The notes beneath the pieces were generated by a model, which made no database searches, was not told the DNA's origin, and saw nothing but the letters and a program-made list of their open reading frames with translations. Below are positions 1,661 to 55,990 of a stretch of DNA of 64,000 bases, piece after piece. Origin of the DNA: a virus; the IMG/VR virus record IMGVR_UViG_3300027844_002282. One strand, 5' to 3'. The translations under genes and the position numbers were made by a program. The first letter of the stretch is position 1; each line of letters opens with the position of its first letter.

Positions 1661-1737
1661 GAAAATAACCTAATATGTAAAATTAACTTGTTTTTTCATA
1701 TACGCGGTTACATTGCAGATATCCTTTTTCAATCTAT

Positions 1738-1801
1738 ACATTGGTGGCGCAACAGGCTCTTAATCTGAAGGTTGCGGGTTCGATTACCGCCCGATGCACC
1801 A
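1738..1801 (+). pseudogene. degenerate tRNA-Lys(CUU), D-arm missing
   Basis: anticodon loop CTCTTAA, GGTTCGAT T-loop and 3' CCGATGC-A-CCA; 5' strand ACATTGG; D-arm collapsed to a single GCGC. Confidence 0.6.
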
Positions 1802-1802
1802 A

Positions 1803-2075
1803 TTACTCAAGGCCGAGCATCTCTTTTGCTCTCTCGTCAGTGATCAAGCCTGATTCAAAAGACTTAAAGATTTGCTCGAAAGAGAAACCGTCTTTGTAAA
1901 TACGGCCAATCTCGTAAGCCTCGTTCCCATGCGGAACGGTAATTACAGCAGTGGCAGCCTGGGCGGCACCTAATTGCTTTTCGACTCTGGCCTTTTCTGA
2001 CTCAAGGTCTTGGACGGAAGCGGGTGAATTTTGAGAGCCAACAGTAACGACAAATAATCTTTTACTCATAATCAA
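1803..2075 (-). CDS. hypothetical protein
   Basis: 90-aa ORF with an AGGAG RBS upstream. Confidence 0.6.
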   Translation of the reverse strand: MIMSKRLFVVTVGSQNSPASVQDLESEKARVEKQLGAAQAATAVITVPHGNEAYEIGRIYKDGFSFEQIFKSFESGLITDERAKEMLGLE

Positions 2076-2113
2076 ACTCCTGTGGTTAGGTTAAAATATA
2101 TTATACATCACAT

Positions 2114-2193
2114 GGACGCATAGCTTAGTCTGGCTAAAGCGCTTGTATGACACATGCAAGAGATCGTTGGTTCGAATCCAACTGTGTTCACCA
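2114..2193 (+). tRNA. tRNA-Val(GAC)-like with a 9-nt anticodon loop
   Basis: acceptor GGACGCA/TGTGTTC, D-arm GCTT..AAGC, stem CTTGT/GCAAG around ATGACACAT, T-arm GTTGG-TTCGAAT-CCAAC, encoded CCA. Confidence 0.75.
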
Positions 2194-2483
2194 AACTTAA
2201 AAATATTAATAGAAGGTCATATTATGGGTAAACATCACGAATGTAAAATTACAAAACTAAAAGACCAGGAATTTTTCAAGAAAGATAATCCACACTATGG
2301 AAGGTCTCGCAGAATTTATAAGCAAGAATTCCACAGCCTTTGACCCAGATGATAAGAAAAAGCTAAAGCTATGGGCGGAAGAAGAGTTCGCGAGGCAAGA
2401 AAGGGCGTTAACAACTTGATATCAATAAGTAGTTAAAAGGATCTTAGTTAAAATCTAAAGAAATAGCCTATGGAGGCTATAAA

Positions 2484-53700: not shown

Positions 53701-53917
53701 CGGATGCACTTGGACAAAGACCACACCAGATGGCGTGATCATGTTGATGAACGTTGGCGTTGTGTGGAAAGTGAGAATTATTGTAGCCTCTGGGTGTACG
53801 ATAACATGGAATGGATCTACAAATCCATGCTCACCAACAGCGGCATATGGAGTGTGGCTCTCGTGTGGCCCATGCGATTGCATTTCGTCAACCGGCGCTA
53901 TTGCGATTGTCAGCTAA
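50792..53917 (+). CDS. 1041-aa Ser/Cys-rich modular protein, possible fibre or decoration protein
   Basis: five poly-Ser/Cys tracts separating Cys-containing beta domains, two of them duplicated. Confidence 0.75.
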   Translation: MRKPTITLREYDNQTGEFVRSTPVLDYGIVLSGNSSGIRVVDFVITGVSAVSNFDITLTNSDGLEVSPSTATVINNVADDGNFGIEINTSFIKKTSLGSFFSALDKEISVPMRIPVVTNYISLNILPGTFESADRNVEYNISFDFIPLESSSSSSFSRSSSSCSCSCSCSFSSSSNSISSSSFSSCSSSDSICCKNTVGVEPPAGAWSPNTIHTTKEAACAPYPDTYWAMTFLYNGTVYYTPYHKSIRWFLNWTDTHCCNWAGGWYANIPSRLGITVQADAESCRSEIIDVPFVTRSYIPCSSSSSSCSSWDSSSCSSSCSSWDSSSCSSSYSSSSFSGAFEYRVWSQIVDVSRDGLYTKHPVLYTGAYLTPQLISLGEWVYGQEAPYTALPPPIEVGVGGKYLFELKQPVGSSVINPLEITNVRMNSISHINIIAVFGVVSQTLTYTNFEGINDVGLSTGWTWYYQSESNCSFQRRVPAGALPVDGPPQNILNDCPAASSSSSSSCSSSSSSFSHSWSSSDYSSSCSSWVSSSCSSSCSSWVSSSSSSYSCSSSFSLSSESISSNRAISSCPPGTPCGAMIIRFKTYNIPDKLTVTDNTGTILNTGFVSTRASYNTYNINAVCPVEVCVSAPLAGTRWVIDVTGCNFTLNQSGGQVNSICWTNSSSSSLSSSSCSSSCSSWDSSSCSCSSSLSPVQAIGQCPPGESCGTMTIKFKTYTIPDRLTVTDNTGSILDTGSISTYQNYNTYIVEAVCPVEVCVSAPLAGTAWIIDITGCDFTLNQAGGQVSNICWTNSSSSSMSLAPSPPSSSNSSSSCSSWVSSNSSSCSSSCSSSSCSCSSCSSSSSSGLLFGYAVWLAQWSCLGDGAWNSPQFAFWSPNTNGSHFGNWVTVDISSPDKTCMARYKTTQLEDTSLPPAIPSGPTEACFNCDSECNGCLPQLTGKYNVSFSGLDGEFQSFDGSHSMPSIDLGGCTWTKTTPDGVIMLMNVGVVWKVRIIVASGCTITWNGSTNPCSPTAAYGVWLSCGPCDCISSTGAIAIVS
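52505..53185 (+). repeat. internal domain duplication, 390-nt period
   Basis: CPPG..CG.M.I.FKTY.IPD.LTVTDNTG...AVCPVEVCVSAPLAGT.W...FTLNQ.GGQV..ICWTNSSSSS starts at 52505 and again at 52895. Confidence 0.9.
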
Positions 53918-54463
53918 TATCTCAAGAAGATCTGTCATCGGTCGCAAGCGGGAAGCTTCAAGTCTATACGCACCCTTAAAGATACCATACTCTTGCAAGT
54001 CACCCTCTGAGAAGTCCTTACTATGAGCCCAACCCATTAAAACCACGTGTGGTGGGCGAGATAAAGCAAGAACGTAGGTGAATCCATTATGAAGCTCTCG
54101 TGGCCTCACAAGTAGATTAAAAGTCAATAGAGCCTTAGACGTGTTCTTGACAAAGCTTCCCTTAATATCTATCTTAAGTGGCGGTATATCATCACCACCA
54201 TCACCATCATAAGGGGTCAAGTTCTGAGCCTCTCTGACTTCATTATATCTATGAAAGCCATCTTCTTCTCCCAACAAGTACATACTGGCGGCACAAGTGC
54301 AGACTTGTCCGATTATTTGATCCATGTTCAAATTGTCTTCTCGATCCTCAACCGATCTTATATGAGAAGCACCGCCTATAGCGCACAAGGTTGCGTGTTC
54401 AACACAAGTGTGCATGTTTGGTTCACTTAGACGAATCTTTATAAGGTCTTCTTGTTCAATCAT
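53888..54463 (-). CDS. hypothetical protein, possible PD-(D/E)XK-like fold
   Basis: DGGDD...IDIKGS pattern. Confidence 0.5.
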   Translation of the reverse strand: MIEQEDLIKIRLSEPNMHTCVEHATLCAIGGASHIRSVEDREDNLNMDQIIGQVCTCAASMYLLGEEDGFHRYNEVREAQNLTPYDGDGGDDIPPLKIDIKGSFVKNTSKALLTFNLLVRPRELHNGFTYVLALSRPPHVVLMGWAHSKDFSEGDLQEYGIFKGAYRLEASRLRPMTDLLEILADNRNSAG

Positions 54464-54763
54464 TTAGAACCCCCAAAACCTGTGGTTTTCTGCGAAATCA
54501 TTGCCGCCATCAACACCTAAACTTTTATTATCACACCACAAGTCAACACCAAATCTATTGAAACATAAAAATACAGTTCCAGCAGAGAACGCCAACATAA
54601 AACTGTTTTTAAGATCAGAAATGTTTTTTGCAGCCGAATCTAAGGTGAAAAGCCCGTATCGCTCAGCGGGAATCTGATAGTCGCCTAAATCATACAAATC
54701 ATGTTTCAACATACCAACCTTGTAGTGCCGCTCGACTTCTTCTGTTGCATAGGTAAGCGCCAT
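54464..54763 (-). CDS. hypothetical protein
   Basis: 99-aa ORF abutting the next gene. Confidence 0.5.
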   Translation of the reverse strand: MALTYATEEVERHYKVGMLKHDLYDLGDYQIPAERYGLFTLDSAAKNISDLKNSFMLAFSAGTVFLCFNRFGVDLWCDNKSLGVDGGNDFAENHRFWGF

Positions 54764-54922
54764 GGCATCTCAAATCTTATGAAGATTTGAAGCCAATGTC
54801 AAAATATCCCGTGAATCCATCGAGTCAGTATCGTAACGCCCTCTCATAAAACACCCCCAATCTGTTAAGTTTATAATGGTATACTATACACGCATCTGTA
54901 GGGAATTCAACAGTTACGAAAA

Positions 54923-55354
54923 TTATTCTTGAGTATCTGCATTTGGGGGGTAACGCAAAGAATCATCAGGCCACTCGACAACCTGGAGTATGGTAGGTGG
55001 GATTGTACCCCTGTATTCAAAAGTGTCCCTCAATATATCACTGCCATTCGAACCTTGATCAAAATCTAACAAGTCCCAATTAAAATCAGGCTCGGCAGGA
55101 TTTATCTCCAATATGACAACTGAGAACTCATAGCCTGACGGAGCATCAAATCCGCCTCTGGCCCACGAACGCGCCTGTCCTGTGTTTGTAGACAAATATA
55201 TGTGGTTAGGGCTCGATTGCCCCCAATTCTTCCTCATTCCAGGCCTCAAGCCTTGCTCAAGGATATCGTCAATGTAACATATGTACGTGGCATGATAGAA
55301 GGCTGAGATCTTTCTAAGATCAGATGCCCTGATTGATTTTTTGTACCAACTCAT
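54923..55354 (-). CDS. WYK-leader protein with an ADP-ribosyltransferase/Tpt1-like domain
   Basis: MSWYKKS; FYHAT...ILEQGL...IYLS...ILEI...YRGTIPP. Confidence 0.7.
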   Translation of the reverse strand: MSWYKKSIRASDLRKISAFYHATYICYIDDILEQGLRPGMRKNWGQSSPNHIYLSTNTGQARSWARGGFDAPSGYEFSVVILEINPAEPDFNWDLLDFDQGSNGSDILRDTFEYRGTIPPTILQVVEWPDDSLRYPPNADTQE

Positions 55355-55990
55355 AGTGTAAACCTATTTGAACGATAAACTATACAGGTTTATATTACAT
55401 AATTGGTTTAGGGGACCCTGTTTATTTACCGGCGGTAGTATCGTAGATAATCTTTCTTACTAAGAGGCTCAAATCAATAGCGACTGAGTCTTGCATGTTT
55501 CTTTCGCCAGGAGAATAAACAACAGCCTTTCCTGTTCCGCTGATATAGCCAAAATCAAAATTCTCACCAGTCTCTACAACGACTACGGGCTCCCCATAGC
55601 CAAAATATGTTTCGGGAACGCTGGAAATCCCGGCCTGCTCATCAGCGTTATCGCGTAACGATGAAAGGACCTGATTTTGCATCATTGCAAGATGAGCAAT
55701 GAGTTCATGCGCACCGATCTTTCCGTATGAACGAACAAATTTATTAAGATCAACACCTGAAAACCCACCTTGCAACTCTCACATGTAATGATCTCCCGTA
55801 TCATGATCCGTAACATATGATATAATTCCCATATAAATTATTTTCTTGATGACCTCTAATGTACAGCAAAACTCAAGAAAATCAAGTTCTCTAATAAAAA
55901 TCCCACAGTTAAAATTTATAACTGCATATATGGGAACCCTTAGAGGACAGGAAACCATAGAAATAGTATAAAGTTATATGGAGGAACCTT

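Follow-up and report, generated by a model that had tools for sequence, protein, structure and literature searches.

Here, we show that AGG-N19-G(T/A)A is a real, strand-oriented promoter-like element in a 64-kilobase (kb) stretch of DNA from an uncultured virus (IMG/VR record IMGVR_UViG_3300027844_002282), which is part of an uncultured giant phage genome and is hereafter called the window. We propose, with a probability of roughly 0.6, that its sites are SigH-type promoters read by a SigH-like sigma factor, most likely encoded by the phage outside the window.

An earlier note on this DNA had listed 14 matches to AGG-N19-G(T/A)A as a probable promoter class, and all 14 are present. Over the whole window the bare three-plus-three pattern occurs at chance level (58 matches vs 55.1 ± 7.0 in dinucleotide shuffles); therefore, the position of the matches is what decides. 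In 63 oriented upstream segments totaling 7.8 kb, 14 matches were found vs 3.95 ± 1.88 in 500 dinucleotide shuffles (maximum 9; 0/500 reached 14), at a density of 1.80 per kb, 4.5-fold that of coding sense sequence (0.40 per kb; coding antisense, 0.23 per kb). Using a rough gene map and counting intergenic matches directed at a start codon no more than 100 nucleotides (nt) away, we found 11 sites at spacer 19 vs 0-5 (mean 1.86) over spacers 12-26 (Poisson P = 4 × 10−6), and co-directional intergenic regions held 11 sense and 0 antisense matches. The enrichment of the 19-nt spacing upstream of starts over both shuffled and coding background, on which the earlier note had let its proposal hang, is present. 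An unbiased screen of the window, covering all trinucleotide pairs at spacings of 0-25, placed AGG-N19-GTA at rank 2 of approximately 106,000 dyads (9 vs 1.45; P = 2 × 10−5). Anchoring on TATAAT-like hexamers was too noisy in the AT-rich intergenic DNA, and an expectation-maximization motif finder (width 36) missed the low-information two-block motif; what it returned was limited to ribosome-binding sites, TGTATAAT boxes and promoters of the form TTGAA…TATATT.

Independent genomes carry the same element. An alignment of homologues of a GT9 fusion protein encoded in the window was used to retrieve metagenomic loci as well as G001, a 255-kb IMG/VR genome. Among twelve full-length metagenomic relatives of at least 6 kb (within L001-L019), 19 was the modal spacer, with 10 sites vs a mean of 2.1; bacterial-type loci were flat. 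At three orthologous loci TAGAGG and GTAAGAA are invariant and the 19-nt spacer between them has diverged. G001 shares with the window a syntenic six-gene block (window 42.2-53.9 kb) and little else, and yielded 24 upstream sites at spacer 19 vs a mean of 2.2 (P = 4 × 10−17). In its own unbiased screen AGG-N19-GAA was the top dyad of approximately 106,000 (21 vs 3.7; P = 5 × 10−10), accompanied by GGA-N18-GAA and AGG-N20-AAT, and the ratio of sense to antisense sites was 32:5. The G001 sites have a purine at -2 (24/24), mostly an A after AGG (16/24) and GAA (19/24), then T (14/24). Two larger genomes favor a spacer one base shorter: G004 (548 kb) peaks at spacer 18 with 25 sites, and spacer 19 follows with 13, vs 5.2 (P = 3 × 10−10 for spacer 18), and G008 (298 kb) has 15 at spacer 18 vs 5.5 (P = 6 × 10−4). 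Their joint consensus is AAAGGAtTtt…GAAtATA, with a spacer of mostly 17 when counted from AGGA to GAAT. No clear spacer peak was found in G003, G005 or G007.

We aligned 13 window sites on AGG, which is itself fixed by selection, and several unselected columns proved to be biased: a purine at -2 (12/13), A at +3 (8/13), T at +18 (9/13), A or T at +25 (13/13), and a recurrent T-A step at +33/+34. This step sits 11-12 nt beyond the G of the -10 element, the position expected for a putative transcription start. The -10 element consists of G, then T (8 sites) or A (5), then A, then A or T (13/13), leaning to GTAT, and the full element reads R-n-AGG-A…N…G(T/A)A(T/A). A distance of 23 nt separates the A of AGG from the T that follows the G, and a housekeeping promoter with a spacer of 17 base pairs (bp) has the same distance between the first T of TTGACA and TATAAT; because these distances are equal, AGG occupies the TTG position of the -35 hexamer. 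The sites lack the housekeeping arrangement of a TTGACA-like -35 located 16-18 bp from TATAAT, as AGG replaces TTG. In seven of the 14 sites, the start codon comes 21-25 nt after the end of the motif, and a separate ribosome-binding site of the GGAGG type occupies the interval. The SigH-like geometry noticed earlier agrees with SigH promoters known from start-site mapping, which have AGGA at -35, GAAT at -10 and a spacer of 17-18 nt (PMC12456013), and a Listeria SigH promoter reads AGG-N18-GAAT (PMC3721983). AGG-N19-G is equivalent to AGGA-N18-G, which falls within the published SigH range of 17-18 nt.

The genomes that show the spacer peak encode a candidate reader. In G001 this is a sigma70-family protein of 323 amino acids (aa) (P0121), whose gene is flanked by a clamp-loader gene and by the replication gene that follows, in the neighborhood of dnaX/dnaN. 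It matches Pfam Sigma70_r2, and among NCBIfam models it is matched best by those for SigH (E about 1 × 10−24, over nearly the full model), which lead the next family, SigK (2 × 10−6), by 18 orders of magnitude. Its score against TIGR02859 is 86.4 bits vs an equivalog cut-off of 294.8 (SigH cut-offs span 208-414 bits), and the G004 and G008 sigmas, at 77 and 70 bits (E = 3 × 10−22 and 2 × 10−20), are also below the equivalog cut-off. As these scores are far below the equivalog cut-offs, we call the proteins SigH-like and not SigH. A protein identical to the G001 sigma is labelled sigma-H factor by the Joint Genome Institute. The G001 protein has an N-terminal extension of ~120 aa; a lysine-rich N-terminal arm of ~60-80 aa is found in P0121 and P0122, limited to G001 and its close relative, whereas P0123 and P0124 have a short lysine-rich arm only and the G004 sigma has none. 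The G001 record (L099-L111) is classed as a provirus in IMG/VR, and since the identical sigma protein sits on a contig of 340,706 nt, ~85 kb was trimmed from the record.

No SigH-like sigma was matched in G003, G005 or G007. Across the six genomes, a small sample, the peak occurs in 3/3 with a SigH-like sigma (G001, G004, G008) and 0/3 without (G003, G005, G007); the G004 and G008 peaks came out of a prediction test set after the G001 finding. Because the three motif-bearing relatives encode such a sigma and the three genomes that lack it lack the peak, a phage sigma is the best explanation of the motif. The proposal that a phage-encoded sigma reads the element is thereby supported in the relatives, and, with no sigma gene in the window, we infer it for this phage from those distant genomes. 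None of the three sigma genes (G001, G004, G008) has an AGG-type site within 400 nt upstream; a TATAAT- or TATAAA-like box is found there instead, which suggests a cascade from host housekeeping sigma to phage sigma to the AGG class. Judged from sequence, this suggests that the AGG class might be a delayed class only. The sigma genes of G004 (at 297.9 kb, L112) and G008 (at 139.3 kb, L169) are preceded by the same conserved ATATGTCGATATAAATA, likely a shared promoter or operator of the sigma gene.

Individual sites were scored with a weight matrix trained on the G001 sites only. In the window it gave 40 matches of at least 10 bits, compared with 16.7 ± 5.0 for sequence simulated with a Markov model. 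The intergenic 16% of the window holds 15-17 of the 40, and 12 of the 14 first-listed sites scored at least 8 bits, the exceptions being 13116 and 55944. The candidate sites are as follows.

1701..1725, minus: SigH-type promoter candidate, 11.7 bits, 41 nt before gene 1169-1660
2438..2462, plus: SigH-type promoter candidate, 10.1 bits, 22 nt before gene 2484-2780
14494..14518, plus: SigH-type promoter candidate, AGGAAT…GAAAAT, 12.9 bits, 49 nt before gene 14567-14914
16126..16150, plus: SigH-type promoter candidate ending in GTATAAT, 10.8 bits, 22 nt before gene 16172-16747
31976..32000, plus: weaker candidate, 8.1 bits, 30 nt before gene 32030-32389, overlapping the end of the upstream gene
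33374..33398, plus: candidate, 11.3 bits, 39 nt before a doubtful small open reading frame (ORF) at 33437 and 195 nt before the MNWYKK gene 33594-34274
35365..35389, minus: SigH-type promoter candidate, AGG-N19-GTA followed by TAAT, 15.0 bits, intergenic, 21 nt before the ATG of gene 34652-35344
35397..35421, plus: high-scoring match, divergent from 35389 (minus), 13.7 bits, ending 4 and 10 nt before the ATGs at 35425 and 35431 (MNWYK)
35887..35911, minus: SigH-type promoter candidate, AGGAAT…GAA, 15.5 bits, 22 nt before the MDWYKK start of ORF 35728-35865
38328..38352, minus: SigH-type promoter candidate, 9.5 bits, 25 nt before the MDWYKK start of the CCA-adding enzyme gene 36705-38303
40919..40943, minus: SigH-type promoter candidate, 11.4 bits, 24 nt before gene 40641-40895 (MMDWYKK)
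41406..41430, plus: candidate, 14.2 bits, 91 nt before gene 41521-41979 (DUF6171), the sole site ahead of the glycosylation block
55944..55968, plus: candidate of good geometry, <8 bits cross-genome, 23 nt before gene 55991-56701
55396..55419, minus: variant with an 18-nt spacer, the length that dominates in G004 and G008; located upstream of the MSWYKK gene 54923-55354
9315..9337, minus: 17-nt spacer near-match, the weakest candidate, upstream of gene 8776-9267
3270..3294, plus: extra intergenic match outside the first list, 11.8 bits, 43 nt before a small ORF at 3337
25404..25428, plus: extra intergenic match outside the first list, 11.6 bits
15179..15203, plus: extra match, AGG-N19-GAA, 11.0 bits, 157 nt upstream of the transfer-messenger RNA (tmRNA) gene, overlapping its TTGACA-type promoter

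Most of the 14 sites stand shortly before gene starts, as the earlier note had it, with two departures. The match at 13116..13140 (plus) is rejected as a promoter: its AGGAG serves as a Shine-Dalgarno sequence for the GTG start at 13129, from which it is 8 nt away, its GTA already belongs to the coding sequence, and the matrix scan did not recover the match. The site at 35397 (plus) is too close to its ATGs; with only 4 or 10 nt available, a normal leader and ribosome-binding site do not fit, and the site is either the source of a leaderless transcript or non-functional. Re-reading the sequence confirmed the back-to-back divergent pair formed by 35389 (minus) and 35397 (plus), and the two near-matches with 18-nt (55419, minus) and 17-nt (9337, minus) spacers are likewise where they had been noticed. 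The overlap of both promoter types before the tmRNA gene (15159-15203, plus) suggests possible dual-sigma control. ORF 35728-35865 (minus), which adjoins one of the best promoter matches, would encode a lysine-rich protein of 45 aa with an MDWYKK start followed by about ten lysines. A match at 6050-6074 (plus; 14.6 bits) is among the best matrix matches, lies in a long gap between two transfer RNA (tRNA) genes, and may be due to chance.

In the mechanism that we propose, the -35 element R-n-AGG-A would take the place of the housekeeping TTG, with the -10 element G(T/A)A(T/A) eighteen bases beyond AGGA, and transcription would start about 11-12 nt after the -10 G, at the recurrent T-A step. The sites would be read by RNA polymerase core carrying a SigH-like sigma, itself most likely phage-encoded outside the window and produced from a housekeeping-type (sigmaA) promoter. 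We infer initiation at these sites and its timing: the AGG class would fire after the earliest genes and drive about a dozen short units, comprising small genes of unknown function, many of them beginning M-D/N/S-W-Y-K, plus the CCA-adding enzyme gene.

Several observations weigh against this proposal. No sigma gene was detected in the window, either by Pfam models on all called proteins of at least 60 aa or by tblastn of four phage sigmas, which gave nothing below E = 0.2. The relatives that carry the argument are distant, with homologues in them for 7-9 of the 98 window proteins, and G005 (L152-L165) shows a marginal spacer-19 excess (9 vs 3.7, P = 0.014) without a detectable SigH-like gene, a bump that may reflect a more divergent sigma, use of host SigH, or noise. 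Taken in the window alone, the dyad AGG-N19-GTA loses significance once 106,000 tests are corrected for, and the assignment of any one site is uncertain because the motif is low in information and ~17 chance matches are expected at 10 bits. Finally, the window prefers GTA (8/13 sites), whereas the relatives and SigH prefer GAA, and three window sites read GTATAAT; for these reasons, some window sites may also serve the housekeeping sigma.

The main rival holds that the host's own SigH reads these SigH-type promoters and that the phage has no sigma, its expression being tied to the transition or stationary state of the host. The closeness of the motif to the cellular SigH consensus and the lack of a sigma gene in the window would both be explained in this way. 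We nevertheless consider it unlikely: all three motif-bearing giant phages with readable genomes carry their own SigH-like sigma, the part searched is 64 kb of a larger genome, and host SigH is scarce in growing cells, which would make it a poor route for a dozen units including a tRNA-repair enzyme. Alternatively, the sites could be housekeeping (sigmaA/sigma70) promoters that rely on their -10 element, with AGG being a phage activator site (cf. MotA/AsiA at T4 middle promoters) or having no role. Several window sites do read GTATAAT or GTATAAA, AGG stands exactly at the TTG position of the -35 hexamer with a 17-bp spacer, and housekeeping-type promoters are clearly present in the same genomes. 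However, the -10 in the relatives is GAAT, GAAGAAA or GTAAGAA rather than TATAAT, the G001 screen resolves the housekeeping class into separate dyads (TTG-N19-TAT and GTAnAAT) whose register is shifted by one base relative to the AGG class, and the peak is found where a SigH-like sigma gene is found, so that we give this explanation quite low odds. That the motif is a by-product of composition and of Shine-Dalgarno AGG near AT-rich starts, picked out post hoc, is very improbable. It would accommodate the chance-level count over the whole window, the ribosome-binding sites at 13116 and 2474, and the finding that, whatever the spacer, AGG ahead of genes is generally commoner in sense than in antisense orientation. 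Yet the peak occurs at spacer 19 alone, none of the 500 shuffles reaches the upstream count, the motif is followed by ribosome-binding sites distinct from it, and this element ranks first when an independent genome is screened without bias, with unselected flanking columns conserved. A SigH-like, most likely phage-encoded sigma remains our preferred reader of the AGG sites.

The window also contains a second, ordinary class, TTGACA-N17-TATAAT, found e.g. before 6969, 58839, 60126, 61028, tmRNA, rnpB and kptA; at rnpB it reads TTGCAA-N17-TATAAT near 9337 (plus), and the tmRNA element lies near 15159. Of the units to which TTGACA-type elements had been ascribed, rnpB, tmRNA and kptA do have them, and the nicotinamidase gene was not located. 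The two classes occupy separate sites in the window and separate dyads in G001, in agreement with the earlier view of the AGG motif as a distinct promoter class. A simple terminator scan of the window gave counts at chance.

The earlier suggestion that the class marks a late regulon is not supported: genes downstream of the AGG sites are mostly small hypotheticals, in addition to the CCA-adding enzyme and DUF6171 genes. The 41.5-53.9 kb segment had been described as a structural and glycosylation operon of this class; glycosyltransferases and a methyltransferase are indeed encoded there, but the segment has no detectable virion homology and the structural label is not supported. The block relies on one site, 91 nt upstream of 41521, and a gap of 264 nt precedes the first transferase. 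The orthologous transferase of G001, the first gene of its glycosylation block, has a sigmaA-type site and no AGG-type one. No Pfam capsid, terminase or portal model matched in G001. A 60-kb one-strand run of giant genes (up to 2394 aa) extends over 99-159 kb of G001. One AGG-type site heads the run (159.7 kb, before an MDWL gene), and another lies within it, before a gene for 2337 aa; ten proteins of this giant-gene block compared with PHROGs gave one tail-fibre match.

Eight otherwise unrelated window genes, including that of the CCA-adding enzyme, begin M-(D/N/S)-W-Y-K/Q. Their start codons are as follows.

27039: WYK-leader start codon
33594: WYK-leader start codon
35431: WYK-leader start codon
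35865, minus: WYK-leader start codon
38303, minus: WYK-leader start codon
40639, minus: WYK-leader start codon
40892, minus: WYK-leader start codon
55354, minus: WYK-leader start codon

The previously suggested link between these leaders and the motif is borne out, since an AGG motif lies at most 120 nt upstream in 6/8 of them vs 17/90 other genes (P = 0.002), and in G001 three M-D-W-L genes all stand behind the motif (P = 0.016). Gene 40641-40895 (MMDWYKK) directly precedes 39884-40639 (MDWYKS) on the minus strand. The leader could be part of a promoter, ribosome-binding site and leader cassette, or an N-terminal targeting tag.

The remaining gene content of the window includes six or seven tRNA genes (1091-6417) and the following features.

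15360-15793: tmRNA gene
35913-36560, minus: KptA (KptA/Tpt1 2'-phosphotransferase)
36705-38303, minus: CCA-adding enzyme with HD domain
42244-43875: GT9 fusion, first of the glycosyltransferase block, followed by GT8, a methyltransferase and GT2

Two large proteins without family match come after the glycosyltransferase block, and other window proteins are a PRPP synthetase, a pfkB kinase, an RNA ligase, a 2H phosphoesterase, an APS kinase and a peptide deformylase. The CCA-adding enzyme and KptA (35913-38303, minus), with the RNA ligase and 2H phosphoesterase among the 23.5-31.5 kb proteins, form an RNA-repair set, and its occurrence together with tRNA genes and tmRNA suggests a defence against host tRNA cleavage. 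The closest deposited phage is a 735-kb huge phage with 38% identity over one protein. No close relatives were found by megablast against phages, by single queries of IMG/VR with the CCA enzyme or the GT9 protein, by an exact 26-mer in IMG/VR, or in metagenomes with the CCA enzyme as query.

If the proposal is right, the rule RnAGGA-N17/18-GAAT would split poorly annotated genomes into transcription classes, Bacillota-like hosts would be indicated, and phage 'sporulation-type' sigma homologues would be seen to control genes of the phage besides manipulating the host. It would also provide a directly testable pair of sigma and promoter for unculturable phages. More speculatively, and at rather long odds, several uncultured giant-phage lineages might run much of their expression via a captured, remodelled SigH, with promoter, ribosome-binding site and M-D-W-(Y/L)-x-K leader forming a cassette that marks a functional protein set (e.g., for packaging or localisation). 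Given how little the promoter departs from the consensus of cellular SigH, the phage sigma might also switch on the transition-state, competence or sporulation-entry regulon of the host.

SigH (Spo0H) promoters of Bacillota (Bacillus subtilis, Clostridioides difficile, Sporomusa, Listeria) have the same -35 AGGA with a purine two bases upstream, a comparable GAAT-like -10, and a spacer of 17-18 nt (18 in the window and G001, mostly 17 in G004 and G008). In contrast to these, the sites described here front phage genes and, in the window, favor GTA(T) over GAA(T); unlike cellular SigH, the sigmas of the relatives score far below equivalog cut-offs, and the G001 protein carries its ~120-aa N-terminal extension. 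Phage sigmas with dedicated promoters are classical, as in SPO1 and T4. The SPO1 middle promoters, which depend on the phage sigma gp28, have AGGAGA at -35 and TTTnTTT at -10. As gp28 does there, the sigma proposed here would take the place of the housekeeping sigma on the host core and use an AGGA-type -35 in a phage-specific promoter; the -10 element and the sigma lineage differ. For SPO1, one account describes an early-to-later cascade (PMC13401047). Large phages without their own RNA polymerase encode sigmas to recruit the host core, and reports on jumbo and huge phages describe RpoD-like or minimal sigmas and T4-type gp55/gp33 systems (PMC7824862, PMC7162821), but not a sigma of the SigH type whose promoter motif has been mapped. 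In viral genomes surveyed earlier, SigH is represented only by a broad KEGG group that includes it (PMC10294663), and our literature search turned up no account of a SigH-like sigma of a phage together with the promoters that it reads; a SigH-family sigma as the transcription switch of a giant phage, with its promoter mapped across several uncultured genomes, is apparently unreported. SigF/SigG-like sigmas of Bacillota phages have been studied for their effect on host sporulation genes and are dispensable for infection (PMC9429907). As with these, the SigH-like sigmas of the relatives are phage genes derived from a host developmental sigma family; in contrast, the cognate promoters here are spread through the phage's own genome, which indicates control of phage genes.

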